DNA from: Squalus acanthias
Lineage: Eukaryota
Assembly (NCBI GenBank): GCA_030390025.1
Contig: CM059438.1
Span: 80,104,001-80,168,000, forward strand
Direction: 5' to 3'
Length of the DNA: 64,000 bases
Part shown: positions 27,935-61,500 of the stretch, in pieces
Position numbering within the stretch: position 1 is the first letter of the stretch
Layout of the letters: each line of letters opens with the position of its first letter
Notes under the pieces: generated by a model
What the model saw: the letters and a program-made list of their open reading frames with translations, nothing else
Told to the model about the DNA's origin: nothing
Databases searched by the model: none
Program-made: the position numbers and the translations under genes

Positions 27935-28132
27935 ATGCATGGGTTAGGTCTGCGTCTTATGGAAGTTCTGGGTTCGAAATCTGAACAAGACACGTGTAAT
28001 TTCCGTCAGTCAGCGATGCTTTTCCATGGAATCTCGGGGGGTGAGATGCAGGGAGTTATGGAGGAGATGGAAAGACGATCCAAGAACGAGCAAGCCATCA
28101 GTTCGGGGATAGACATGGGGGAGAGAGAAACG
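27935..28132 (+). CDS. lhx2: Lhx2 coding exon 1 (N-terminus; in-frame ATGs at 27935, 27959 and 28016)
   Basis: Translates MHGLGLRLMEVLGSKSEQDTCNFRQSAMLFHGISGGEMQGVMEEMERRSKNEQAISSGIDMGERET, matching the Lhx2/Lhx9 N-terminus (AISSxIDxGxxET is Lhx2-type). Donor ACG|GTAGGC at 28132/28133, phase 0. The true start ATG is uncertain. Confidence 0.9.
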
Positions 28133-29732: not shown

Positions 29733-29935
29733 ACTATGCCGTCCATTAGTAGCGAGAGACCGGCTCTGTGCGCTGGCTGTGGGGGCAAGATCTCAGACCG
29801 CTATTATCTGCTGGCGGTGGACAAACAGTGGCACATGCGTTGCCTCAAGTGCTGTGAATGTAAACTGGCCCTGGAATCCGAACTGACCTGCTTCGCTAAG
29901 GATGGCAGCATCTACTGCAAAGAGGATTACTACAG
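29733..29935 (+). CDS. lhx2: Lhx2 coding exon 2 (LIM domain 1)
   Basis: Acceptor TTTTTTGCAG| and donor AG|GTACCG. Encodes TMPSISSERPALCAGCGGKISDRYYLLAVDKQWHMRCLKCCECKLALESELTCFAKDGSIYCKEDYY; 203 nt, ends phase 2. Confidence 0.97.
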
Positions 29936-32556: not shown

Positions 32557-32915
32557 GAGATTCTCCGTGCAGCGGTGCGCCAGATGTCACCTCGGGATCT
32601 CGGCATCAGAAATGGTGATGAGAGCAAGAGACTTGGTCTATCACTTGAACTGTTTCACATGCACAACTTGCAACAAAATGCTGGCAACCGGGGATCACTT
32701 TGGCATGAAGGACAGCCTGGTATACTGCAGGATTCACTTCGAGACTCTGATTCAGGGAGAATTCCAGGCTCACTTCAATCACACAGACGTGGGCTCCAAG
32801 AGTGGCGCTGCCCTGGGGCTGCCATTCTATAACGGGATGGGCACTGTGCAGAAAGGACGACCCCGCAAGAGAAAGAGCCCAGGACCCGGGGCTGACCTAG
32901 CAGCTTACAACGCAG
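32557..32915 (+). CDS. lhx2: Lhx2 coding exon 3 (LIM domain 2 and basic linker)
   Basis: C-rich acceptor ...CCGCAG| and donor G|GTAGGG. Encodes RFSVQRCARCHLGISASEMVMRARDLVYHLNCFTCTTCNKMLATGDHFGMKDSLVYCRIHF...GRPRKRKSPGPGADLAAYNA; RDLVYHLN and SPGPGADLAAYNA are Lhx2-type rather than Lhx9-type. 359 nt. Confidence 0.97.
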
Positions 32916-43918: not shown

Positions 43919-44360
43919 AATGTCGAGGCTCAGGCATGAAACACATGGGTGAGGTGTTGAAGGGTAGCTTGTGCATTTGGGAACGTACCCAGGCATGAGA
44001 GGAGGGGAGGAAAATTAGACAGCCGCAATCATTGTGATACCTTTTACGCAATTATTTGGTTTTAATTTCATTTAATTTGCAACAAACTCTAAACTCTAAA
44101 TCAGTCCATTCTTTTCATTTCAGAAACATTCTCATTGAATTCTGTTCAGCGTAACGTTTGTTAAATCAGACGTGTGTCCAAAGACAAAGCTAATCACAAA
44201 CCAAATACATTTTTAAGCAAACAGTGGGACTTTAAATGAGTCAATGATACAAAGAACAAAGTTTTTATTAAATCAGCAGTGGAATATATTTTTAGGCAGT
44301 AATCACATTTATTCAAAATTTCTTCTTAAATTTACAGTATATCTTCATAATATTTTGTAG

Positions 44361-44566
44361 CGTTAAGTTGTAATGAAAATGACGGTGACCACATGGACAG
44401 AGAGCAGCAGTATCCTCCCACTCAGAAGACAAAGCGCATGCGCACCTCTTTCAAACACCACCAGCTGAGGACCATGAAGTCTTATTTTGCCATTAACCAC
44501 AATCCTGATGCCAAGGACCTGAAACAGCTAGCACAGAAGACGGGGCTTACAAAGCGAGTTCTGCAG
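44361..44566 (+). CDS. lhx2: Lhx2 coding exon 4 (homeodomain up to the start of helix 3)
   Basis: Acceptor TTTTGTAG| and donor CAG|GTAAGA. Encodes ALSCNENDGDHMDREQQYPPTQKTKRMRTSFKHHQLRTMKSYFAINHNPDAKDLKQLAQKTGLTKRVLQ; 206 nt, ends phase 0. Confidence 0.97.
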
Positions 44567-44769
44567 GTAAGAGACCTCTATTGAGTTACTGTTCAAATTC
44601 TGTTTCTCAGGCAATCTGTCCTTTTTTATTCTCCCAGTTTCACTGGTTTTTAGAATAATAATTACATTTACAGGTATATTTAAACTAACATGACCTCACA
44701 TATGTAACAGTTTTTTGGAGCAAAAACGGTTAATTTGGTTCAACTTCTCAGCATATCTCTCAAACACAT

Positions 44770-44920
44770 CTCTATGCAGAGGTACATTTCATTGTCCTTT
44801 AGATCCATTTTTATTGCCCACTTCAGTGGCTGTCGCATGTTACCTATTCCACAAGTCTATTACCCTTTCAGTGAAAAAGTTCTGCCCGACTTCCCTTCTT
44901 ACTCCTAACTTCTTAATTTG
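44770..44920 (-). mobile_element. Highly decayed CR1 fragment
   Basis: CTATTCCACAAGTCTATTACCCTTTCAGTGAAAAAGTTCTGCC resembles the antisense CR1 motif near 39945-39990. Confidence 0.4.
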
Positions 44921-45059
44921 TTTTCTCTGGTATTCAAATCCTTTGCTAGAAGGAGCAATTATTACTTTTGCACGTAGGAGAGCTCATAAGCTCCTCAAAA
45001 TTATTCTGCAGCAATTCTGTTTGGTTCCTCCTACCATCCTGAAGACTCTGCGAGTGATT

Positions 45060-45400
45060 GCACTGCATGGTGTGGGACTGAGCCAAACAGACTGGGATTC
45101 GCAATCTGTGCTGTTTTCGCAGGGAGGGCAATAGGAGTGCTGCAAGTGGCACTGGTGGCCCCTGCACTAGGGTGTGGAAAAATCAGCCTGAGTTCCCACT
45201 CCTGATTGCTGTGTAGCAACTGCTGTTGGAGTGCATGTTGGGTGAGGAACAGGTGGATTGCAGCTGTGAGGTCCCCTATGGTCAAATAGCCTTCGAAGAC
45301 TCACTGTTTGGGTTCATCCATTAAGAATGGCAATCGTTGCCTGTGGCATCGAACCTCAACAAAAGTTGCTGCTCTTGGTAGATCGGGGATCTGGGTGGAA
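45060..45400 (+). repeat. Old interspersed repeat (SINE-like), copy 2
   Basis: GGAAAAATCAGCCTGAGTTCCCACTCCTG...GCTGTGAGGTCCCC...AAATAGCCT, colinear with the copy near 8010-8115. Confidence 0.55.
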
Positions 45401-45854
45401 AATTGGAGCAGGAAAAAATTCCATTTAACGTAAAAGCTATAACATTTTAAAAGAGCTGTACTATTCAATAATCTTTTCTTAAGTTTCTCACTTGTCTAAT
45501 GTGTATTTTAATTTGATACACTTTTGGGAGCTGCAATAAGTCCATGATTTCAGTGTGGAGGTGGGAGGTGGATGGTTTTAATGCACTACAGAGTGGGGCT
45601 GCTTTTGTGATACAATAATGACTTTGGCCAAACTGCTGGCAAAACCTCCTGGATTCTGGCCTGTAGCTCCCTCTGTGCTGTATAAAATACATGTAAAAGC
45701 ACAGTGCTGGTGTTTGACGTGAAATCTACCATAAAACTGCAGGTCTGTAAATAGGGAAGGTGGGGGGCGGGGGCGGGGGCGGTGAAAGGGTTGTGGGTGG
45801 TGGAGTGGTCAAACCCTGTTTTTTTTTTAGCCATTTGAGGATTCTAGGGGAAAC

Positions 45855-46150
45855 AAAAAAATCAGCCAACCAAATGGACCAGATAGGAAGGTCCCAGATT
45901 CAGTCCTTGCTTTGCGCTGACTTTGCTACTTACCTGGGACAGGGAGCCACTACGACTGACTTCAGCATCCTGGATTAGGGATTGGAATTACCATCCAGGG
46001 TTCCAACTCCTGCTAGCTATCCAAAGTAAAACCCATTTTTTTGGAAAGCCTGCGTATGGACCATGCCTATTGTCAGCAAACTCTTTCCAGTTGATCCTTT
46101 GAGGCACTCAGACTGCTGTCATTCCTGTCTTGGAACACGCCAACCAATGG
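45855..46150 (+). repeat. Old interspersed repeat (SINE-like), probable copy 3
   Basis: CCAGGGTTCCAACTCCTG motif with an upstream GGAAGGTCCCAGATTCAGTCC head-like segment. Confidence 0.4.
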
Positions 46151-46475
46151 TGTAAGTACAGGACAATTAATCGTGCAGGAAAGAGAAGTCAGAGGAGTGT
46201 GCAGGCAGCTTGTGCCACTTCCACTTGACATGGAGACTGGTGAACATCATAATATAGTCGCTTGCAACAAATAACCAATCTTAAATTATTCTCTTTTAAC
46301 TGTGAAATATTAAAAATTCTGTTAGAAGTGGGAAGTGCACAGAATAGAAACTTAGGAGGTAAACATTGGAACCAAATATTAAAGCTTAATCTACACCCAA
46401 ATTGCATAGGGAGATATAGTTGGACTTTATTTGAGGGGGGGGGGGATTCAAAGTATAAATCAATAAAGTGTGCCC

Positions 46476-46558
46476 AAGTCCTGGTCCAATATATTGAAGT
46501 CCTGGTCCAATATATTGAAGTCCTGGTCCAATATATTGATGTATTGGTGCAATATTCG
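46476..46558 (+). repeat. 21-bp tandem repeat (three perfect units plus one degenerate)
   Basis: (AAGTCCTGGTCCAATATATTG)x3 followed by ATGTATTGGTGCAATATTCG. Confidence 0.95.
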
Positions 46559-49005
46559 ACAGCCGTGGCTGTTTGTATTTAGCACCATGTGAGGCAAGCT
46601 ATGTCCCTTTCTCTATTTTTGCAATCGCTTCTGCTATTATTACACTGACCTGGTTACTGGCTGTTGTTCAGCTAATTGTTCTTTCCCATACTGTGTCTAT
46701 CTGTTTAATCAGTGTAAGCCAGTTTTGGTTGTCAGCAGTCTCTCCCTGGGAGCTAGTTTTAAATTGCTGTAGTTTTAACTATCCTCGGAAAAAAGAGCTG
46801 TGCTAAAAAGACGATCTCTGAGAAGTATGTTTTTTCTTATTAGAAGCTAAACCCAGTGCCTATAATAAAGCAAGCCCTCTTTCTTGATCTCTCTTGATTT
46901 AGTCACACTGTAAAAGACCAGAATGTTTAGACATTCCTGATCAATACCAAATAAAACACCTTTGCATTTACATTCTGAAATATAACATGATATTTAATGA
47001 GCTGAAACGATGGGATCCTGCAGCTTTGAATATCAATGTGTTTTTTCTAGGTATGCTCACTTGGTGATCTGTTTCCCCAAAAATGGGAGAGACATGTCCC
47101 TGTGCAGGAATAATGAGTTTACACAGTGATTCTCCCAGTTTTAGGAGAAACAAGCGCCCCACTGTCTAGGCAGGTATAACCCTGTAGGTGACAATGAGGC
47201 AGTGTTATTTAAAGCACCTCATTGGCACCTGATAAGCTGCTGTCACAACTGTAACAATAATGTCAGAGGTCTTTAAACTCATTATAAGTTTACTACCATC
47301 AAACACTGAAGCACTACTTTAATACCAAGCACATCTTCAAGGATTATTTTAATATGCGAAGCCCGACATATACACATTTTTTTTTTCTTGATTTGAAATG
47401 GGTTGCCTGAAAATCACAGAATTTAATATCCTTTATGTGACTTGCATGCTTAGTGTTGTTTTGTATGTGCGTGTGTGTTGTGAAGTTTAAATAGATCCGT
47501 ATCATTATAATTACACAGAGCACTGATCAATTGCTATGAAATGTAAAATGGTACTTACTTAGGGAGTTGCCTGTTAAAGGGGTTGTTCAGTGGTTCTTGT
47601 GCCAATGCGGCAGGATTTATTGTATCCCTGTTCCCTTTTCTGCTTGCAAAGTGCACTGTAGATGGAGCTGATGGACGTCTATTTCCAAAATGCCTCCAGT
47701 TCACCAATATCAGGAGATGCTGTAACATTTAGATTTAATCATTTTTTAATTTGAGACATATTCTTGAAGCAAAAATATTCTGCATCAGCAATTCTCTGGG
47801 GCCCAACTCTTCAAAATTTAATATCAATTTATTAGGCAGTGTGCCATGTACCAAATTAATTTGGCATAAGCCACAAATATATAATTCTTAGATGCTTTCC
47901 ACGCTTAGAGCAAAGTGATATTTTACAGAGTCGGGCTTCTGGTGACTCTGAAGTGCTGTGGTCATTGCACTTATTCAAAGATTGAAAAGGACAACCGGTT
48001 ACACATTTCACTTATGACAGAGACTTGTGAGGCCGTTGTTATCGTTTGTCACTGGATCGCATCGAACAACGTCTGTGGCAAACAGATAACTTTTAAAATA
48101 TCATATGGGATAATAAGTATATTTTATTATTTAGGTGTTCTGGCGAGGGATAAAAAAATTCTCTTTGTGAAGTCCTGTTTCAATAGGAATGGAAGGAGAT
48201 AACGGTACAGGCTGTCATTCTGGAGTTATTCTTCCTTTGGCTTTGATCTAAGTAACACTGTTTAAACAGAAATTAGCCATCAGATCAGTAGAAACTAAAT
48301 AGAAAATAAAATTAAATCAGATGGAAGCTTCGCGATACACTTATCATTGCTAAGGTTCGAGTGGTAAATAAAGTGGTCAGTAATAACACGGAAGAGTTAG
48401 ATACTGTAAGTTTGTAGAAAGTTGATCCCCATAGCTGTGAGACTGAAATCTTAGAGAAGGCTGAGGCAATGCAGGTCATTTTAATTAAATTTTGTAGCAC
48501 TTTGATTTATTACTTGGGTAACCAGCTTAAAGAGACACCGCTTCCTGAAGTAAATGTGTCACAGTAGTAGCTCGTGTTGCTTATGTTTTTTTTCCTTTTG
48601 GTAAAAAAAATGTTTGAATTTTCTTGGCACGCTTTGCAATCACTGAGTGACCCCTGTAATTGTTCAATTCCTTTAAACAGTTTTCTGTAGAAAAAAAACC
48701 CTCCTCTTCACAGAATCTAGAATTTTGTTGTTCTCCTTTACAAAATCGAATGAATGCATTTTGAGAATGTCCCTTAATTTGTTCTCCTTGTAAAAAAAAA
48801 TACAAGAAACTAATCAGAAGCATAATAAAAAAAAAGGGTGACAGTATTTCAAAATTTGAACATAGCTGATTAGAATCTTCAGAAGGATAGTATCTATATG
48901 ATATGTGACAGGTACAATATATTTTCTGTTGCGATCGTTTTACTTACTTTAAACTCTCTATATGGGTTCAAAACTGGTACAATATTACATCAAATTGGTT
49001 TGCAG

Positions 49006-49296
49006 GTTTGGTTCCAAAATGCAAGAGCAAAATTCAGGAGGAATCTTTTACGGCAGGAAAATGCAGGGGTTGATAAAGCATCTGATGGCACAGCACTTCA
49101 AGCAGCAACACCGTCTGGCCCAGCATCAGAAATTTCCAACGCCTCTCTTAGTCCTTCAAGCACTTCTACTACTTTAACTGACTTGACTAACCCTACTATG
49201 CCAACCGTGACGTCAGTTTTGACGTCTGTGCCTGGTAGCCTCGAGGCCCACGAATCCCGAAGCCCTACACAAACTACTCTCACAAACCTTTTCTGA
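49006..49296 (+). CDS. lhx2: Lhx2 coding exon 5 (recognition helix and C-terminus)
   Basis: Acceptor TTGGTTTGCAG|. Encodes VWFQNARAKFRRNLLRQEN...TPSGPASEISNASLSPSST...QTTLTNLF*, with TGA at 49294-49296. The C-terminal region matches Lhx2. Confidence 0.97.
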   Translation, partial: VWFQNARAKFRRNLLRQENAGVDKASDGTALQAATPSGPASEISNASLSPSSTSTTLTDLTNPTMPTVTSVLTSVPGSLEAHESRSPTQTTLTNLF

Positions 49297-49547
49297 GAAC
49301 TCTTTTACATGATTCCTATGGAGAAGAGGAAATTCTTAGTTTAATTATAACTGTATTTTTATTAGATGCTTTGTACAACTGACTAACAGCACTATGGATC
49401 TGTACTGAAAACTGAGGCAAGTCAATGTTCTGGAAAAAAAAAGTTTACAAGCTGCGGAGAACCTTTGCAGAGTTAACTTCGATGCCCTTTTGTGTAACTG
49501 TACAGTTTTGTGGACTGAACAAGGGAATGAAATCAAAAATCTGAACC

Positions 49548-49557
49548 ATTAAATAAA
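49548..49557 (+). terminator. Proximal polyadenylation signal candidate (overlapping ATTAAA and AATAAA)
   Basis: ATTAAATAAA about 250 nt downstream of the stop codon. Confidence 0.45.
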
Positions 49558-49603
49558 GTTGGCTAGGAATTATGTGTACTTCTAAGTTTTCAAAGACTGT
49601 CAT

Positions 49604-49611
49604 GTGCCTTA
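49604..49611 (+). promoter_or_regulatory. miR-124 8-mer seed site (GTGCCTTA) in the lhx2 3' UTR
   Basis: Exact 8-mer match about 310 nt after the stop codon; mouse Lhx2 is a known miR-124 target. Confidence 0.7.
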
Positions 49612-49747
49612 TACACTGTCTTATAAACACACAACGGACTGCATCTGCATTCAATTCAGATTTATGAGGTTGATTCTTGCCAGTTGTCTTTCTGCTACAT
49701 TGAAAGTTCAGAAACCTTTTAGAATGTCATAGTAAAAGGTCAGTTTC

Positions 49748-49753
49748 AATAAA
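49748..49753 (+). terminator. Distal polyadenylation signal candidate (AATAAA)
   Basis: Canonical hexamer about 450 nt downstream of the stop codon. Confidence 0.55.
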
Positions 49754-52700
49754 GTTGTGCTAAAGTTATATAAAAAAACAAAGAAAAGAACATTCTGGAC
49801 ATTGAAGGATTGCAGTTTGAGACTGAAGGTTAGGAAGAGTCTCCGTGTTTCGTATCACCCTTGAATTCAATTGGGGTAACTGTTATACCTCAGTGACCAC
49901 CGAGAGTTCAGGGGTCTTTAACGGTTGTTTGGAAAGGTAGCATTTGATTTTATTGGGCTCTTTCAAAATCAAACCTCCAGTCATTTCCTTTTGATGTTGA
50001 TCTTCTGTCCCACATACATTTGTTTTGCATTATTTAATACATTCAGCTCTGGGGATTGTTAAATAACTAACTTTAAAACACTACAAGGTGCCCAGTTTAG
50101 ATAACATAGCAGACCACAATGCTATCAGTGACAGTGTATTCTGAAGGTTCTTTCATGAGTCCAGTCTGTCTTTTGCCACAAGTGAAGGAATGTCAGTAAT
50201 GCATCATGTGTGATACAACACTGTTTCTTTTGGGGGTTACTCTATTTTAACTTTTCACACTTTCTGCAATTGGATTGTTAACTGGTGATTTGCGGCAGTG
50301 AATTCTCTCAACGCTGGGCGATGAAATTATCATTCAGACTCGCAACAGATAGTGATAAGAGTTTCTGAACAACTCCATATTCATGCTAAATGCTAGGGAG
50401 ACTGCGATTTGTTTGGTTCTTAGCAACAATGAACTTACTGGATTTAGTCTTTCAGTGGCATTAGTGTACAGTAAATAGATAGCTCACCCAATTTCAAATG
50501 GATGATTCCACTTATCATTAATTATATATAAAACAATTGAAAACAATCTTGTAATCTGTTTAAGAGGAAGGATAGCTACATGCAACTTATTGCATTAGTC
50601 TCAGTGAATCCGAGCCCTCATAAATCACCATGCTCTTTATTATGAAAAAGTATTGTTTGGTTTAGAGAATAAGGACTACAATGTGATAACTTTTATTTTT
50701 GCAGTTTTAAAAATATCATAGGATGTAATAACTGAATGTTACCAGCACCCACAAAGGAGAAATGAGAATTTAACATCTTGGAGTAGTAAATGCACTGTCT
50801 TTTGCCTATGACAGAAGGTATTCTATTTGTGTAAATTTCTGTTTCAGTTCAAAAACCTTACTACCAAACTTTGCTGATTAACTCTTTGCTGTACATCCAC
50901 TTTGGCAAATGATTCCGTCAAAAGGATTTTTTTTAACATGTAAAGCTCACAGAAGACCAATTTTACGTTTTATTGACCACTGCAAATTCCGTCGGTTGGG
51001 CTGGAGGGTACAATCTGGCGCGTGAAGCTGCACAGCGATTACTGTCTGTGCTGCTCCATGGTCAGCCAGCAGGAGGCAAGTTTCAGTGGAGAGAGCTGTC
51101 TGTTTTCCCCAAACTCTGAGACAGACCACCTTACTATTGCTCTGTGCTTTCCTGTTGACCCCCCCCCTCGCTCCAGGCGAGTTTGAGTGACAGGCCTCAA
51201 CTCCCTGTTGCCTAGTTGTGAATCTAGTGCTCAACTTTTTTGAGTTCCCAAGTCGTCTGAATGCCAACAATTTTATAACAAAAAGGTATTAATGAGATGT
51301 GATGCAAAATCAGGTGGTGAAAACGGTCGCTCATTTTGCAAAGTTGTTACATGAGTAACCTACAATATTCTTTCAGTTTGAGTGTTGAGTTGGGTAATAA
51401 TGAGCAAGAACGGCTGCTTGTGTTGGGGGCATCTGCCACACCAGTTATTATCTTGGAGAGGAAAAAGCTGAGTGCTAAGCCACTGGTGCAGTAGGAAGCT
51501 CAACATGTTCTAAATATATTAATTGGCATTGAATGAAAAGAAAAATTAGAGTGCAGTGTGATTTCAGTAAACCAGTGCTTTAAGAATGCAGTGTTAGTGT
51601 TTACTGGGATGGTAATCATTTCTCAGTGATCATTTTGCTGACGTATACAGATGTTTTAACAGCACACAGTTAACAAGAAAGTAGTTGAGACAAAAGACAC
51701 CAGGTTTGCATTGGATGCCCCAAGACATCAGAGGCCATGTTAAAGCTGTGTGTCTAACGTAGGAATAGCTCTGGACCGTGAAACAAGGATTTGGTTTGAA
51801 CAAAACTATCATTAAATACAATGAAGCCATACAATAATTCCTTTTTGGAGTATCTTAAATGCATGTCCAGGAAAATCTTACTGCCAATAGTTAAATAAAT
51901 GTACAACTTCAGCTTTTCATTTTAAATAGAGCTACAGATCACCTTATAGACCAGGGTAGTCTGATAACTGGTGGGATGTGGCTGCCACTGATCATGTGGC
52001 TCTGACGAACTTGGGGGCACACGACTGCTTTGATTTTGAATAATTAAAAATAATATTCGTTAAAATGAAAAGTACCAGAGTTATAAACAGAATATATAGT
52101 GGCAAATAATAGTTTATAAAGAAAATTCTAGTTAACAGTGTGGGTGTCTGAGATACCACATTGTGGAATATATATTTTTATTCTATGAGTGTGATTGGTA
52201 ATTTCACTGCCCAGGGCACTGTTACTTCACATGTGTAAAAATCCAACGTGCCATTTCCCATCCGTGAGATAACGGGCAGAAGCAGAACATTCATTTGAAG
52301 TCCCATTTACCTTTTTACCCACAAACATTGACTGTAGAACGAAGAGGCTGCTTGCCCCAGTGACATGAGTGGCAGGGGTTCACTCACTTGTTTTAAAGGC
52401 TGTCAGGAGTCAATAGCATCAGCAGCACTCGTAAGTTCTGGGTTTTTCACATTGGTGAACCAGCTGTCAGAATTCACCGTGGTGCAGCATGTAAAGTGTA
52501 CACTATAGGAATTCATGGTAAACTCAAGCTAATTTACTAACAATTGGCAGTGCACTGGGTAGCAGTATTTCATGATAAAAAAGGAAATTATGGATTGGTT
52601 AAACATGCACCAACTACAGAACGGATCAGATATTTACATTCTTTTTCCACATTCTTTAAAAAAAAACCCAAGGAAATAAATTTGAAGAAGCTGGATAAAG

Positions 52701-53326
52701 TAAAAATGAAAAATATTTCCTCTTCATGTTGAGGGAGGTGGAGGTATATTCAGAGCAGCAAGTTACACAAGAAACGTGATCAAGAAGAAGTTTATTAAGA
52801 GACTATGGAATTTCATGCATACACTTTCATGAACTTTGCTGACCCTTTTTATTGTTTTGATGCTGTGGTCTTGTCTGATTGTGAAAAGCACGCTGGCTTT
52901 GAATGCTGTACATTTTCTATTATACCAATTGTACTGTCCTGTACACATTCTTGTACAGTTGAATGTGATGTATTAAACAGTCTCCATTTTTGTTGATATG
53001 TATAAATTAGCATAAAGTAGTTCTAATTTTTAAAGTGTTTTCTTGCCAATGAATTTAATCTACAAATTCATGCAATTTATACAAAAAGGAAAGTGATGGG
53101 CATGTTTCCTACGGCAGAAAGGCACCCCCTGGCCACATGGCTAAAAGATTAAAGCTGCAAACCCTACACCGTGTGCGTGATATAATTAACAACCGAAAAA
53201 AGATGATAAATCCCATTCAATTAGAGTCAATGCATTCTTTCTTGAGATATGAAAGCTCTTAGGTTAAAGCAAAAGATTAGAAATTATTTAGGGGTTAACC
53301 AATTTGTAAATATGATTTTTTTGCAG

Positions 53327-53374
53327 GTAGAGCAAGTATTTGGGCCAATTGAGACTGCCATTCCCGAAGTTTGA
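53327..53374 (+). CDS. Candidate alternative terminal exon (Lhx9-alpha-like), VEQVFGPIETAIPEV*
   Basis: Branch-like GTTAAC near 53294, acceptor TTTTTTTGCAG| and phase 0 compatible with the exon 4 donor. The peptide start resembles the Lhx9-alpha tail GEQILG, and a shifted frame reads SRSLKCP (compare SRRLKIP). ATTAAA at 53520-53525. No transcript evidence. Confidence 0.55.
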   Translation, partial: VEQVFGPIETAIPEV

Positions 53375-56001
53375 AATGTCCTATCGTTAAAAGAATGAAA
53401 ATTATAAGACTGGAAACTAGGTGACTTCAAGACAGAGGTCATTTGAAAAGTGAGCTGCTTATATTAGTTTACTATATTGATGTTGAAAAAATGTGAAATG
53501 CTTGTTGGGCATTTTTTCAATTAAAAGAAAAGACTGATACAAAGATACAATACTTGCTCTTGCTGCAAAATAGAAGGTAAACAATGCTCCCAAATGGGAA
53601 ATGTGCTATCAAATAATAACCACAATGAATTCATGAATAATAATAAGATAGACTCTTTCACAGTCTTCTGCAGTTAGATCCAATCAACGGCATAATACAA
53701 TAAGCTACCTGTGACACAGCTCATCTATTGTTCGTTATCAAAGTACTGGAATATGCTTTTTTTCACTGCTTCTGAAAGATACCTGATTTTTAAATCTTTC
53801 CTCATTAAAACAGGTTCAATCGTGGATGCGGTAAATACACTCAGGCAGCTATTTGATTAATACATCAAAATCTTAGTACATGTTTATGATGGAAGAGTTC
53901 CTATTGTCTGAATTCATATGGCTTTAATATCTTTAGGTTCCTAGCTGCTTTGAAGAACTGACTAGAATCTTTGCACAACATTATTTATTACACTATTTTG
54001 AGAAAGCTCCGACGAGTCATGAAAGAAATGCATATAAGCTGGTCCCTTGATACTACAGTACAACACCGGCATAGATATCGATCTGACTTTAGTTAGCAAA
54101 AGCTTTTCTTAGTATGGCTGGAAACGGCGCTGTTAGATAAATTCTTCATTGTCTGTGTCTTGGTAGATATTAGATGAAGGGATAATTAATCTTTGCAGAT
54201 GCGCTGCTTTTTGCAAATTGACGTTTCCTCAATTGCTGTCTCTTCAGCTCTACCTTCACACACTCTCCTTCATCCAGGAGGGCAGTGCGCTCCAGGCTAT
54301 AGGTTTGCTCCGTGGCTTTAGCCAATGGACCTCCATGACTGCTATTAATGGCACTCTGCGATTAACCAACAGGAAATACATTTGCAAATGATATGCAGTG
54401 CTGCTTTCTTTCTCCCGTGAGGTGTAATGATTTATTATTATAAGCTGCTCTACCTATCAGTCTAGTCAAAACTATGTAATTTTAGGTGGTCTAAAGAGCC
54501 CAGTAGGACAGGCACTTGAACCCACAGCCAGCTGATTAATTCTTCGAGAGTTGAAGTAGCATTTTTGAACCAAAATCCAAATAAGAGAAGATAATGCTGG
54601 GCCAGTTAATGCAGGTTCTTAGTGTGCTAAAATCCAGAGCTGTGAAGCAATTGGGCATGGGTTTCCCCTTTGGCAGCCCCTCAACAGAGAGTCCTGCATC
54701 TGGCTGGTACCATCTCTAGAGGCGATCTATGACGGCAAGGTGCTTCCTCATAGGTAGTGATAATCTTAAGGCAAGTCAACTCTTCTGTAGCTCCTGACAG
54801 CTGGTTCCAATAGGGTCTGGCACATTGGGAACAGTTTACCTGCCCAGCTGCCCAGTTGGAGTAGCTGCATGGCACAGAGTAAACTGTGGAACCAGAAACC
54901 AAGAGAAAGTAAATATAGAAGAATACGAGAGATGTTGGTGGGGTGGCGGAAATAGGGCGGGAAAGAAAGACCAGGCAACAATTCAGAAACATTTTGTTTG
55001 TTTCTATAATTCCATTTCTGTAGTATTATTTTTGCAGTGGAAAACAGAGACGATTCTATTGTAGAGATTACACAACAATATAAAAGACGTGTATATTAAA
55101 CTTTCAAAAATCATTTAGTTTTCAAAAGGATCACATTTTTGTGATATTTAACCTTTTTGTGCTTAGATAATTTGAGCAAAATTATTGAAATTCTCTCGAA
55201 GAACTAGAATCTACAAGAAATGGAAAAAACCCAGAAATACCGACATTGTGTTTGCAGCACTTAAAAGTCTCATTTTACCGACAATATGAGACACTGTGGA
55301 CCAACACACACCTTTTAGGTATATTCTGCATAATATTCCAATGCGCTTCTGCTATCAGAGGTGTACACTTTGCTGATGTATACCTGATGGAAGTAGGCTC
55401 TATTTATAGCATCTAGCAAAAGACAGTAAAGCAGCATGAACGAACTGGGTAATTTAGTCTATTTAAACTGTTTAAAAAAAAAATTGAAATGCACATATAA
55501 ATTCCAGTGATACCTCACTTGAATGGTTATATTTTGGTTGTTATTTGACGTCTACTTTCCCCCCTTTCCCCCCGAATAGCCTTGAGCCCCATGTACCTGG
55601 ACTCTGAATAAAACTGTTACAGGTGGGGTTGGGCAGGGCGGGTTGACAGCAATGACTTTCATAACCTTTGTAGATATTGTTTTGTGCTCAGCTGAAAGTG
55701 GGGGAGAGAGGGGAGTAGCTGAATCCAACCTGAACTTGCTGATATTTCCCTTTCTTCCCTTTGCTCAAAAACACAGCTGAGATTAGTAACTTTCTATCTG
55801 GTAAACCCTTAGCACAAATAGAGGCCTTTGAGGACTTTGGACTGTAATGATCCTGCAACAAATCCACAACATAGCAAAATTACAATTGATTAACCCATTG
55901 AAAAAATCTCAAGAATTAAGTGTTTCATACTAATGTCCATTATTCTAATTTGATGTTAAATGTTTTGTAATGGATTACTAACAAAAGAAATACCCAGACA
56001 C

Positions 56002-56927
56002 AGGCCCCGATATTTATGGGGAGGGCGGTGGGGGATTATAGCTGCCCGGAAATGTGGGCAACGCGGTAGTCCTGCCGAATTTAACGGCAGGACCTCATTT
56101 GAACTTTTTATTCTCCGTTTCCCAGCCGGCAGCCAGCCAGATTGAGAAGCTGCCTGATTGTCAGGCGGGAAGGCCTGCGCCGGAAGGTCGCAGCTGGGAG
56201 CGGAGAACTGGGAAGGTCGGGGGTTGATTGTGGGTCGGAGGGGAGATGACCGGTGGGGGGGTTGGGGAGGAGGTCACAGGAGGGGGAGATCGCGGGGGTA
56301 TGTCAACAGATGGTGGGTTGGGGGGGGGGGGGAGATCACGGAGGGGGTGGGTGTTGAATAGTTCACTGGTTTGGGGGAGAGATCCTGGGGGGGTTGTTGA
56401 ACAGATCGCGGACGGGCGGTGAATCATGGGGAATGGGAGATCGATCGCGGGGGGGGGGGTTGAAAAGATTGCGCGTTGGGGGGGGGCAGGTCGTGGATGG
56501 GGGGAGAGATCGCTGGGGGTGCGTGGGGTTGAACAGATCACGGATCGGGGCAGGAGATGGTCGGGGGAGCTTCGGATCGCGAGGGGAGGAAGCAAGTTTG
56601 CCTGTAGGGCTGGGGGAAGCACTCCTGCTCCTCCTGGCGCACTAGCAGTGCAGGAAAGGCACTTACCTGCTGGATCCGTCCTTACTCGCCTCCCAGTTAG
56701 ATCTGAAAGTCTGTTACAATTTGAGGCACGCAGCCTCATTAGCATAATTCAATGACTGACCCGCCTCTTGAGAGGAGGTTAGTCGCCCGCCCCTCAACCC
56801 ACCTCCGTTAAAACAAAAAGTAGGCGTTCTCAAGGCGGGTTGGGGTCGGGTTTCTCATTTTTGAAATTTGAACACCCCACCCCGCCCCGTCCAAGTCCCC
56901 CCCACATGGAGGGTTAAAATCCCCCCC
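56002..56927. mobile_element. GC-rich MITE-like insertion with an internal G-rich minisatellite
   Basis: Sharp GC- and CpG-rich block in AT-rich flanks; ends GGCCCCGATATTTA and TTAAAATCCCCCC; repeated GAGATCG-G-run and GTTGAA units at about 56220-56580. Confidence 0.55.
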
Positions 56928-57029
56928 TGCCCCCCCCCCCCCCACCCATAGTATTTAATGAACTTTAAGGATACAAACTCTTTGTGCTTTAAGAATCTTA
57001 TTTTTTCCATGGCTCTCCAGGTGGTTAGG

Positions 57030-57487
57030 TGTTAGCCGTGGCTCAGTGGTAGCACTCTCGCCTCTCAGTCAGAAGCATTCTGGTTCAAGTCCCACTCCAG
57101 AGTCCTCAACACATAATCTAGGCTGACACTCCAGTGCAGTACTGAGGGAGTGCTGCATTGATGGAGGCGCTGTCTTTTGGATGAGACGTTAACTGAGGCC
57201 CTGTCTACCCTCTCAGATGGACGTAAAAGATCTCATGGCACTATTTCAAATAAGAGCAGGGGAGTTCTCCCTCGCTAATATTCCTCAATCACCATCACTA
57301 ACAAACAGATTATCTGGTCATTATCACATTGCTGTTTGTGGGAGCTTGCTGTGCACAAATTGGCTGCCACGTTTCCTACATTACAACAGTGACTACACTT
57401 CAAAACAGAACTTCATTGGCCGCAAAGTGTGTTGGGACATCCTGTGGTTGTGAAAGCTGCTTGCTAAATGCAAGTCTTTCTTTCTTT
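57030..57487 (+). mobile_element. Full-length tRNA-headed SINE, Deu-domain (SacSINE1/AmnSINE-like) family
   Basis: Pol III A box TGGCTCAGTGG (57039) and B box GGTTCAAGTCC (57082); central GCAGTACTGAGGGAGTGCTGCA...GATGAGACGTTAA; tail AAATGCAAGTCTTTCTTT. The 3' half is shared with copies at 7688 and 63550. Family name recalled from consensus. Confidence 0.85.
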
Positions 57488-58294
57488 GTTCCTTCTTTTG
57501 CTAAATTCACAGACTCACCTGGCTTGTTGTGGGGGAGGCTGTCAGCAGAGATGAGGTATTGCCCAAAAGGGAGAGTATGGAATTACAAGTGAATCAACCT
57601 GCAATTCCTAGTGCCCAGCTACAGTGTGGCATTGACAGAGGTCTTGGAATAAACCACTTGCCCACTCTCCCAATCAGGGCATAGTATAAGACATGGAAGG
57701 GGTGTAGAGAGGGTGCAGCATGGAATGAGAGAGCAATAAAAAGAGAGAGTAAATAAACTTGGGGATAAAGAAAAAGTTTTTTAAATCACCAACACATAAT
57801 CATCTGGATTAAGATACATTTTAAAAGAAAGCTCGAACTTGAATTGTTATTTTGTCATTTTACTTGCACTGAGATTCAGGTACAGTGAACCCCCCCCATT
57901 ATCCACCATATTGGACAGGACACCATGGGTCCCCTGTGCATAATGGAAGTTGTTGGATAATTGACAGATCCACATGTTGGACTTACCTTAAATATGGGAA
58001 TGAAGACAATTACACAGTCAATAACATAAACTGAATGTAATCTTTCTCGGGCTGTGAGTTTGATTTATATGAGACGGGGAGATTGGTTTTAGCGAGTGGT
58101 GCAAAGAGATGAGGGAGGTCATTTTTACCTTCACAGCCTGGGTAGTAATCTGGCTGAGCCCGTTATAGAATCCATCCCATCGGTTTCAATGGGATTGCAG
58201 GTGAAAGTTATCTCCAATGGCTCACTTCAAGATCTTGTTTGTGAAAATTCCATTGGATAATTGGATCATAGATAACAGAGGTTGCAAAGTATTT

Positions 58295-58510
58295 CAAAGT
58301 ATTTACAGCACAGAAACAGGCCATTCGGCCCAACAGGTCCATGCTGGTGTTTATGTTCCACACGAGCCTCCTCCCACCCCTCTTCATCTAACCCCATCAA
58401 TATATCCTTCTGTTCTTTTCTCCCTCATGGGCTTATCTAGCTTCCCCTTGAATGCATCTATGCTATTCACCCCAACCACTCTCTGTGGTAGCGAGTTCCA
58501 CATTCTAATC
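58295..58510 (-). mobile_element. CR1 3'-end fragment
   Basis: TTTACAGCACAGAAACAGGCCATTCGGCCC...GGTAGCGAGTTCCACATTCT is the reverse complement of a CR1 3' UTR. Confidence 0.85.
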
Positions 58511-61500
58511 ATTTTCTAACATAGAATACTTTCTAACGTGAGGAAATATTAATTTCAACAATGCTGAAGGATCAGTGCGAGATAATATAGCAGAGACATA
58601 TATCCTTTTGTTGGCTTCCTCAGCTAGGAGGTCACAGTAGGTGTTTTGATATATAATCACCATCACAAATCCTATTTAGGTAAACTGGCATTTGTGTGGG
58701 TTGCTTAACCTTTTTTTTGCTGTTTTGTCATTGTCATTGCAGTTTTAGTCCAAGGGTGTTGTTAATTTAATTAACCAAAAACATTATAATTCATTGCAGT
58801 GGAATAAAAAAGTGAAGTATTCCGAACAAATTTAAATATGAACAGAGTTAACTCACTGATTAAATTAACTATTGCACCAATAATAATGAATTGGTGATGG
58901 TCCTCCATCATATCTACAGAGCTTGCGACTTATAGATCTTTCGTACTCATGTAAGAACTTCCATAACAGACGTTCATTGGTACAATATCCTATAGATCAT
59001 TCCTTCCATATTTGTAAAAATATTTAGCATAATACACCAATGATACAGTATCTTCTTACAACCTGAACTGTGAAATTTGTCCTGCAAGTGAAGGGACAGT
59101 AATAACAGAAGACTTTAATTGATTCTATCAGTTCTCATGGTCGTTCTGGAATGTGGCACGTGAAGCTGACATCAAGTGGTAATTCCCTGTAATAAGTTGC
59201 TACTTTCATCAATTTATACGTGAGGCCAAATGATAACCTGAACCGTGCATTTTGACAATACAGCGAATAGTTCAACGGCTTCTGTACTAGAATAGGTGAC
59301 GAGACAGAGAGTTAAAAAATGATTCAAGTGCCGAGCCATGGCCCTGGACCCAGTACAAAATCTGCCTGATCTTTTCACTAAAATCATCAGAACTTGCTTC
59401 GAGAAGAGCTATTTTTTCATTTATTTCTGTTGTCACTTAGTGTTGAGATTGCTCTCCCAATCTTCCATGTTCTGCCTCTTTCTTTTGACAGGTAAAACGT
59501 TTCAGTTTATTTTGTTATTCTGCTTTCTGGGACGACCTCTTAAGGAATTTCAATTTTTAAAAAATTCAGACTTAGTTACACAGAATGATTGAGCCGTTTG
59601 GTGAGCAACCTTGTGAGATTTTACAAATCCATTTCCTACAGGGGTGGCTGTGCATATACCAAGGTGTTTACTGCGGCATGGATTGTTGGCATGAGATGAA
59701 GCTGAGTACTAAAATAATTAGCATTGTGGTAAAACTGCCATATGCGAATCTTCTTGTTTATTATTATCATCAGATCCTGTTGTGTTTTTTTGTTATCTGT
59801 TGTAATAATAAATTATAATAAAGCTGTAGTGCCTATCCACAGAGGTACACAGATACTACAGTGAAAGAATCCAAATGTAATACTCTTGGTGACTATACCA
59901 GTGAGTTTTACACACTGTGATAGCACTGTACCTGATCTCACTCTGATCTACTGAACATTAGATTCTTATAGATAAAGAGAAAGACACCGACTGGCTGTAC
60001 AAAAAAAATAGAGAGGAAGTGAGTATAAATTCTAGAGCAGCACAATCAGATTATGGGGAGATTGAGAGATGATGAAAGAGTGAGGGGAGAGCACCAAGAA
60101 TTCAAAGCAGAAATTATAGAACTTGAAGTAGACCTTGCAGATTGATAATTATGGTGATTATGTCATTTTGTTCAGACATTGTGGCCATTACTAGCCCTGA
60201 GGGTCCCACCACCACCTCGTAATGAGGCACGCTAATGACAGCACGTTGATATAATAGTGATTTTAAAAAGCTTAATTAGCAGCAAGTGAATCAAAGGACA
60301 ATAATGAAAAGATCAGGGCTGTTAATGACCATAAAATCCAAACAAGATTACATTATATTATATCACTGCTATTATTTTGCACTGGTGTGACTGACAGAAT
60401 CTGAAAGCAATGAAATTGTGAACGATATTCATTGAACTTATTGGTGTTTACCACAATATTATGGTACTGCGCTCGTACCATAGACTGTGTCAAAGCCATT
60501 AAAACGCTACCAGTGCATGTGTCTGATGGAATGTCTAGTTTTCTACTAGTTTAAGCAACAAAGCAGATTGCACACAAACTATGGTGCAATAATTAGCGAG
60601 TGGATGTGTAAGAAATGCTTCAGAATGGTGACAGCCAGAACGGAACGAGAAAGACATTTTAGAGAAAGCTATATTAATGTCTTCACTGTTAGATTGTTTT
60701 TTCATCTTGGAATCTTTTGGTTATTTTCATATTGTTCTGTTGACATTGCAACACTGAAGTACACTTACATGATTGCTACAGCTTCTTTCTGCCACTCAAA
60801 TATTTGAAGAAAATGTCAATAAATCAACTTTCAGGGGATTTATTATAAGAATTCAAAAACTAGAAAAAAAAATGAAACTCAACACAGTGGTAAACGTTTA
60901 CATGAGATTTATTTTGACTAATTTTTTGAACTGAGACAGTGTAAGGTGAAAATACAATTGCAGACTCTTGTCAGGTACATGCAGTCAGTGAGAAAATATC
61001 TATACATGGCATCTTTCAAAATTAATTTAATTGCAGCATATTGATTTGAGAAATAGTATTTATCTCTGTTTTTAAAAAAAAAAAGTAAATCAACCAGACA
61101 TGGTTCTTTTTATTTATCAGTTTAATACAATCAATAGGAAAGTCATTCTATCTCACCCACAACGTAAACAGCATTTTGTGCTCCACCTCTATGTGCAGCA
61201 GTATGAGTTTTCCTTGCTTGTCGTTCATTGAGTATTGTTTGTGAATTATCAGCACACTGTGTAAGTCCCAGCTGATATTATAGTGGATTATACAAATCTA
61301 TGGAAAATAATATCTCAATTTTGCCATTTGTTGGTTGTGTGTGTGTGTGTGTGTGTGCTTTTCCTGCCATGCAGATGTGAAGAAACTAAAGACTATTTAC
61401 ACTGGACGTGGGAACAAGTTGCTGTATCTTTATGCCATGAAGGAACAATCTTCAGAAATAAAAGACATTTTCATACTATGCAAAGTGCCCTCCATTTTGT

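Follow-up and report, generated by a model that had tools for sequence, protein, structure and literature searches.

Shark lhx2 probably carries an alternative last exon homologous to that of Lhx9-alpha

The truncated Lhx9-alpha and Lhx9-beta forms (Lhx9a, Lhx9b) arise by splicing after the codons for KRVLQ to an alternative last exon downstream (PMC9310833, PMC2447832), and the lhx2 gene of Squalus acanthias raises the question of whether this paralogue of lhx9 carries the same switch. The window, that is, the whole 64,000-nucleotide (nt) stretch analysed here (G000:C14:80104001-80168000, from contig CM059438.1 of a 3.7-Gb genome), contains an lhx2 gene with the same splice after KRVLQ, and a sequence-only reading of it had proposed a hidden ‘Lhx2-alpha’ exon some 4 kb past the stop codon. 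We consider it likely that shark lhx2 has an alternative last exon here, DNA-homologous to the Lhx9-alpha exon, spliced to exon 4 and derived from an alpha exon of the Lhx2/9 ancestor, and that this exon yields a predicted 337-residue Lhx2 with both LIM domains and without the recognition helix.

The exon 4 donor at 44566 (CAG|GTAAGA) is in phase 0 and serves two acceptors, one at 49006 for the canonical last exon and one at 53327 for the alpha exon, which starts 4031 nt beyond the canonical stop (49296). The alpha acceptor, TTTTTTTGCAG at 53316-53326, is the sole acceptor within 44567-60000 with a run of at least seven pyrimidines before CAG|G, and the 48-nt coding part of the exon reads VEQVFGPIETAIPEV in frame from 53327 to a TGA stop at 53372-53374, while SRSLKCP appears in its +2 frame (53362-53382). 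Upstream lies GTTAAC, the branch-point consensus being yUnAy. The parts of the gene that bear on the choice of ending are as follows (X1, X3 and X7 being sequencing runs of relatives, described below):

44361..44566, plus strand: lhx2 exon 4 (homeodomain through KRVLQ), with the phase-0 donor common to both endings and joints to 49006 and 53327
49006..49296, plus strand: canonical last coding exon (VWFQNARAK..., the remainder of helix 3 and the C-terminal tail), with a GT-AG joint in X1, X3 and X7
53294..53299, plus strand: likely branch point GTTAAC, 29 nt upstream of the acceptor, aligned with TTTAAT in lhx9; its role is presumed
53311..53326, plus strand: alpha acceptor region TATGATTTTTTTGCAG, kept in lhx9 by alignment; the X1 joint ends there
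53327..53374, plus strand: alternative last exon, coding part (VEQVFGPIETAIPEV and TGA), used by RefSeq models P0129, P0130 and P0132 (15/15 residues) and P0152 and P0157 (14/15)
53361..53376, plus strand: block aligned 15/16 identical to lhx9 but in another frame (+2 SRSLK against SRRLK of Lhx9-alpha)
53375..54118, plus strand: start of the alpha 3′ untranslated region (UTR), reaching at least 54118 (X1 contig 53322-54118, X7 contig 53322-54073)

The GTTAAC, the acceptor, the phase-0 splice from exon 4, SRSLKCP and an ATTAAA at 53520 all lie where the sequence-only reading had placed them. The last of these did not hold up as the end of the exon: the 10.7 kb that follow the canonical stop contain ATTAAA or AATAAA 19 times, so that a motif at 53520-53525 is no better than chance (about 0.30 per 200 nt), and the X1 and X7 contigs, which cannot reveal transcript ends, continue beyond it to 54118 and 54073.

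The resemblance to lhx9 is at the level of DNA. In the same genome lhx9 has an intact alpha exon, GEQILGHYSHTSRRLKIP, at C15:68196395, about 1.85 kb beyond its canonical stop; the peptide that the sequence-only reading gave for Lhx9-alpha was the right one (PMC9310833), with H for Q in this genome's copy. This exon, taken with 20 nt of its intron and compared with both strands of the window, has its best score, 192, at the candidate; the next best of 638 windows scores 118. In the 14.7 kb that follow the lhx2 stop the same query reaches 197, a value attained by 0/500 dinucleotide shuffles (maximum 134; Gumbel p 2e-7), and the exon without its intron scores 129 against a shuffle maximum of 105. 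A 300-nt query gives a blastn E of 8e-6 (53305-53376, 75 columns, 74.7%) and an nhmmer E of 0.001, and when lhx9 (intron 4 and the DNA downstream) is scanned in 567 80-nt windows against lhx2 non-coding DNA the alpha exon comes out best (185, next 143; mean 106, standard deviation 12). By these alignments lhx2 53305-53382 is the DNA paralogue of the lhx9 alpha exon, and the exon at 53327 is homologous to it, as the sequence-only reading had supposed. A weak second match, in the alpha 3′ UTR (54980-55032, E 0.014), was set aside as not above background in the window scan. A repeat or transposon origin found no support either: 53200-53600 (401 nt) has one match in the genome, in a search that skips very common words, and a degenerate pattern built from the lhx2 and lhx9 acceptors finds those two sites, as it must by construction, and no others.

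The first 19 nt of the two exons align ungapped and in the same frame (14/19), and within this shared-frame part 10/12 first and second codon positions are identical against 3/6 third positions, all small numbers. After codon 6 lhx2 has a net 2 extra nt, the small indel that had been predicted, so that the lhx9-like SRSLKCP lies in the +2 frame and the spliced frame stops at 53372; the final block (18/25 identical, its leading 16 nt 15/16) is read in different frames in the two genes. This indel, presumably arising after the duplication, would have altered the tail from residue 7 onward, leaving the truncation and an xEQxxG start, rather than RRLKIP, as what the paralogues have in common. Specifically, the Lhx2 tail has 15 residues, two glutamates and no basic residue, whereas the Lhx9 tail has 18 residues and ends in RRLKIP; of the first six residues of the conserved peptide GEQILGHYS(Q/H)TSRRLKIP it matches E, Q and G, and it does not match the peptide as a whole, so the lhx2 ending is best described as the paralogous counterpart of Lhx9-alpha and not as Lhx9-alpha itself. 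A 2022 study reports that protein BLAST with the Lhx9 tail found the alpha ending on no other LIM-homeodomain protein (PMC9310833), and the weakness of the peptide alignment can explain why Lhx2 was missed. The cross-frame 16-nt block and the conserved intron side hint that there may be constraint at the RNA level too. A conserved RNA hairpin across the indel was considered and dropped: a plausible stem can be drawn, but four folded stretches give z-scores of -0.11, 0.10, 0.58 and 0.04. Two further observations concern lhx9. In this genome its alpha stop, TAG, abuts a donor-like GTATTT (C15:68196338 region), which the aligned place in lhx2 lacks. Frog Lhx9-alpha tails (P0196, P0197, P0198) differ in their first half (GEQCSGFNSHTTRRLKIP) and keep EQ, G6 and RRLKIP; the positions they have in common with the Lhx2 tails are E2, Q3 and G6.

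Is the exon used? We placed assembled contigs from four relatives' runs (of 23 listed), all from other species, on 44200-55200; the runs are presumed to be RNA, and in X1, X3 and X7 the canonical intron has been spliced out at GT-AG. In X1 a GT-AG joint 44566-53327 is present in one 818-nt contig reaching 54118; transcripts of this relative join exon 4 to the alpha exon. In the same run the contig depths of the canonical (10.5) and alpha (5.42) forms add up to that of exon 4 (15.9). The X7 contig begins at the alpha acceptor with 12 unplaced letters ahead of it, and no joint was called there. In both runs the depth of the bin 53008-53374 (0.78 in X1, 1.04 in X7) is wholly accounted for by the alpha contigs, so the intron side is without contig cover. 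Run X3 has the canonical joint only among the contigs listed, with bin depths compatible with a piece near the acceptor among the 54 unlisted ones, and X2, in which neither last exon is covered, is uninformative on the choice of ending. As a share of summed depth, a crude measure of level, the alpha form makes up 0.34 in X1 and 0.10 in X7.

The same ending is found in gene models of other sharks and rays. Five RefSeq predicted Lhx2 isoforms carry the alpha tail (from cluster member lists, with at most 15 members listed per cluster), and the spliced product of the window matches them as follows:

XP_059494204.1, Stegostoma, isoform X3: 327/337
XP_078405977.1, Cetorhinus, isoform X4: 330/337
XP_067867982.1, Heterodontus, isoform X3: 315/337
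XP_069744601.1, Narcine, isoform X6: 319/337
XP_051893044.1 (P0157), Pristis: 306/310

The ending KRVLQ-VEQVFGPIETAIPEV is 15/15 identical in the three sharks (Stegostoma, Cetorhinus, Heterodontus) and 14/15, as ...AISEV, in the two rays (Narcine, Pristis). RefSeq isoforms of this kind are usually backed by RNA-seq introns. Under a neutral model, the chance of keeping at least 14/15 residues and the stop is 0.0005, 0.0045, 0.026 and 0.12 at assumed nucleotide identities of 75, 80, 85 and 90%, respectively. The five records are the same isoform as the window product, but they are unnamed automatic models unlinked to Lhx9-alpha; thus the isoform is already in automatic annotation (X3/X4/X6), its nature unrecognised. 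The exon had been called ‘hidden’ and Lhx2-alpha not established: the second part stands, as we found no paper on an Lhx2-alpha form in the literature (subscription papers and supplements being outside the scope), and the first does not. The junction that had been predicted is thus present in X1, in one contig with a short side, and in the five models. The Pristis pectinata record XP_051893044.1, which bears no isoform number, is itself the alpha form, so the database's representative Lhx2 for this species may lack the recognition helix.

How widely the tail occurs was surveyed in 507 proteins, excluding 34 without KRV(L/I)Q, 48 with fewer than 200 residues before it and four ambiguous ones. 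The alpha tail is present in 5/342 Lhx2 proteins and a GEQ tail in 29/79 Lhx9 proteins, the former so far in sharks and rays only and the latter from chimaera to mammals. By group, and in a sample biased because isoforms are buried in clusters, 5/44 elasmobranch Lhx2 proteins and 0/298 others carry it. No Lhx2-alpha occurs among the cluster representatives in the homologue searches (best 120 of 337, 755 and 280) or among the members listed for bony fish, coelacanth, lungfish and tetrapods; as such isoforms go unlisted even when a search targets the tail, the evidence for their absence from bony vertebrates is weak. The chimaera Lhx2 model P0364, whose homeodomain is missing, does not bear on the question. 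With this bias in mind, the Lhx2 copy of the alpha exon seems to have been kept by sharks and rays and lost or silenced in bony vertebrates.

Exons 1-4 joined to the alpha exon encode a predicted 337 residues. On the RefSeq shark counterpart Pfam finds both LIM domains unchanged and homeodomain positions 1-46 of 57, compared with 1-45 in Lhx9-alpha and 1-57 in the canonical form, in keeping with the earlier proposal that the LIM domains are kept and the recognition half of helix 3 removed. Use of the second acceptor replaces homeodomain residues 47 onward (W48, F49, Q50, N51, R53) by the alpha tail, and positions 47-57 are lost. The lost WFQNAR segment supplies helix 3 with its core residues and with those that contact DNA. 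This helix is critical for DNA binding (PMC9310833). AlphaFold models, both poor (24-sequence alignments; mean predicted local distance difference test, pLDDT, 40.6 and 42.1), leave the alpha form helix-free after residue 314, with pLDDT 31-44 over the homeodomain, and give the canonical form a helix at 318-345 (pLDDT about 60-70). From the Pfam result, the role of helix 3 and these models we strongly infer that Lhx2-alpha would not bind DNA, and it is reasonable to infer that it would keep Ldb binding; the Ldb1 titration and dominant-negative action suggested by the sequence-only reading would go further than this, and dominant-negative action is in doubt for Lhx9-alpha as well (PMC9310833).

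It is plausible that transcripts not ended at the poly(A) sites of the canonical exon go on to use the acceptor further downstream, in which case the ratio of alpha to canonical form would be set by competition between splicing and cleavage; as the alpha stop lies in the last exon, junction-dependent decay should spare the alpha mRNA. The protein would be unable to bind homeodomain sites and would still bind Ldb cofactors through its LIM domains, so that it might serve as a LIM-only-like subunit altering the make-up of Ldb complexes while reducing full-length Lhx2 output; strict dominant-negative action would be only one of the possible outcomes. The nearest model is Lhx9-alpha, which like Lhx2-alpha keeps both LIM domains, has its homeodomain cut at 45-46, and has homologous DNA and the xEQxxG start. 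Lhx9a is reported to have lost binding to LIM-homeodomain DNA sites and kept cofactor binding (PMC2447832, PMC9310833), Lhx9-alpha was reportedly unable to bind such a site in vitro (PMC9310833), and the Lhx9ab protein has been shown by antibody in mouse and chicken embryos (PMC9310833). Competition for Ldb1 by Lhx9-alpha is a proposal (PMC2447832), and Wheaton 2022 holds direct evidence for a dominant-negative Lhx9-alpha to be lacking and reports one assay that spoke against it (PMC9310833). The LMO (LIM-only) proteins also have LIM domains without a working DNA-binding domain and are a model for cofactor competition (PMC9310833); they differ in being separate genes without a homeodomain, whereas the alpha forms retain helices 1-2, the start of helix 3 and the linker. 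A truncated-homeodomain variant of Lhx8, mentioned in the same paper (PMC9310833), likewise has LIM domains without a working DNA-binding domain and is likened here by description only.

The age of the switch depends on the relation between the two genes. The window gene has two LIM domains and a homeodomain and is nearer Lhx2 than Lhx9: in a 20-row tree its place is among the Lhx2 rows, at a modest support of 81/70, and that of the C15 gene is with shark Lhx9 (88/87). Its five exons (27935-49296) join into one 418-residue frame, the product being 98% identical to Cetorhinus Lhx2 (tblastn, splicing). Exon 4 and the canonical last exon were given above; the others are:

27935..28132, plus strand: lhx2 coding exon 1, from tblastn with shark Lhx2 and the five-exon frame
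29733..29935, plus strand: lhx2 exon 2 (LIM1), from tblastn and the five-exon frame
32557..32915, plus strand: lhx2 exon 3 (LIM2 and linker), from tblastn and the five-exon frame

Nek7 exons (mostly 90-96% identity) lie about 200 kb beyond C15 lhx9 on the strand of that gene, and a Nek paralogue (77-87% identity) lies about 350 kb beyond the window lhx2, again on the strand of the gene, so the two loci belong to two paralogous chromosome blocks. At fourfold-degenerate sites lhx2 and lhx9 are identical at 51/129, near saturation, and must therefore have separated long ago; the pair has been ascribed to an early vertebrate genome duplication (PMC13715784). The alpha exon has the same place and orientation in both genes, beyond the canonical last exon, so that inheritance from their ancestor is the simplest reading. 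An alpha exon older than the Lhx2/Lhx9 duplication, which the sequence-only reading had put forward, is in this sense what the paralogous Lhx-Nek pairs and the near-saturated sites suggest. A third, strongly diverged Lhx2/9 paralogue is present at C26:5624472-5632739, with both LIM domains and a homeodomain of about 70-75% identity; the tree leaves it unplaced on a long branch, and it is possibly a further duplicate from the genome duplications.

Several points weigh against the reading of a spliced, ancestral exon encoding a truncated Lhx2. The joint 44566-53327 occurs in one of the four runs and in a single contig there, one further run being compatible, and its exon-4 side holds 23 letters (plus up to eight shared), under the 31-letter bar for bridging; the canonical joint of X1 likewise has 23 letters on that side, as expected for a fork of the assembly graph. 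All four runs come from other species and are presumed to be RNA, and their depth is a poor guide to level. The five tail-bearing records are predictions and not sequenced proteins, and the Lhx2-alpha protein is likewise known as a prediction from sequence. The homology signal is short, blastn of 27 kb against 44 kb and of other stretches (8 kb against 11 kb) leaving the exon unreported, and the two peptides share just xEQxxG, with a weak local BLOSUM62 score of 19. The age is deduced from the paralogues of one genome, and alignment to the C26 paralogue gave scores at the null level, with no trace of an alpha exon. As to function, Lhx9a is reported not to have antagonised Lhx9c in a differentiation co-expression assay (PMC9310833).

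Four other explanations deserve weighing. The exon may be an ancient, spliced paralogue that acts at the RNA level, as a dosage valve diverting transcripts from full-length Lhx2, with a short protein that is unstable or irrelevant and with splicing signals, not the peptide, under conservation. The 15/16 block kept across frames and the conserved intron side, set against 51/129 at fourfold sites, would fit this, as would the divergence of the two tails from residue 7 and the poor AlphaFold model of the alpha form, helix-free where the canonical model has a helix; but frame, stop position and 14-15/15 residues are retained across sharks and rays, first and second codon positions match better than third (on small numbers), and embryos of mouse and chicken do contain Lhx9-alpha protein (PMC9310833), and we think this explanation unlikely. 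Less probable still is that the alpha exon was born in Lhx9 after the duplication, and that gene conversion or a small ectopic duplication then put a copy into the lhx2 of early cartilaginous fishes. Restriction of the tail to elasmobranchs, exon blocks (14/19 and 18/25) more alike than fourfold sites, and the traceless C26 paralogue speak in its favour; against it, the exon has the same position and orientation in two paralogous blocks, and the flanking introns and UTRs show nothing above background, so there would have been no nearby template for conversion. Its appeal is further reduced as loss in bony vertebrates needs a single event and as the protein sample, with isoforms buried as cluster members, is biased.

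The exon could also be a decaying relic, an old paralogous acceptor with low-level splicing and no selected function, which has survived because shark genomes evolve slowly. Such a relic might be expected to be frameshifted relative to the highly conserved Lhx9-alpha tail and to appear absent from bony vertebrates, as is the case, and 35/342 Lhx2 gene models carry unrelated one-off tails, so a predicted isoform alone means little. The alpha tail, unlike these, recurs in five shark and ray species, the exon is the best-preserved non-canonical block between the paralogues, and its contigs make up roughly a third (X1) and a tenth (X7) of summed depth, crude as that measure is; we give the relic very little weight. 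Chance resemblance of a T-rich, acceptor-like site to the Lhx9-alpha exon we regard as scarcely credible: the match is short and escaped large-scale blastn, but the shuffle, scan and targeted BLAST tests, a spliced joint exactly at the aligned acceptor and five independent gene models that use the exon all argue otherwise. The preferred reading thus remains an alternative last exon inherited from the Lhx2/9 ancestor and truncating the protein.

Other features of the locus were noted along the way. Contigs of X2 show CT..AC joints 44527-45305, 44527-45934, 45390-47559 and 46128-47559 (window 44279-47559, minus strand); they mark a spliced antisense transcript that overlaps exon 4 and intron 4 of lhx2, exon 5 being uncovered in that run. 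Patchy cover in X1 and X3 runs from the canonical stop (49297) to about 52650-52733, with an AATAAA at 52675, and is followed by a gap until the alpha acceptor; the cover over 49297-52733 may represent an extended 3′ UTR of the canonical form that stops some 600 nt short of the alpha exon. Within exon 5, an internal acceptor CAG at 49055-49057 would skip VWFQNARAKFRRNLLRQ in frame and offer a second route to an Lhx2 without helix 3. It is used in predicted isoforms of Pristiophorus (P0010), Heterodontus (P0011), Hemiscyllium (P0135) and the teleost Megalops (P0405); in the window the AG is present there, and no joint to it is among those listed for the four relatives' runs.

What we describe is an isoform of a known type in one clade, not a new mechanism. 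A spliced, conserved Lhx2 alpha exon would make the truncation switch older than the Lhx2/Lhx9 duplication, for an ending so far treated as specific to Lhx9 (PMC9310833). It would also be a natural experiment, in which the same truncation with a different tail separates losing helix 3 from gaining the RRLKIP peptide. The embryos of shark and skate used in work on the forebrain and fins would carry a form of Lhx2 that probes to the LIM region could not distinguish from the full-length one. A bolder version, which we find possible but on balance doubtful, holds that the alpha switch is ancestral and predates the vertebrate genome duplications, that sharks and rays make a regulated, translated Lhx2-alpha amounting to up to tens of percent of transcripts, that bony vertebrates lost it, and that the truncation, rather than the conserved Lhx9-alpha peptide, is the selected function, as the frameshifted tail would then show. 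If this were true, loss of the alpha brake could have altered Lhx2 dosage in the development of the forebrain, eye and appendages of bony vertebrates.

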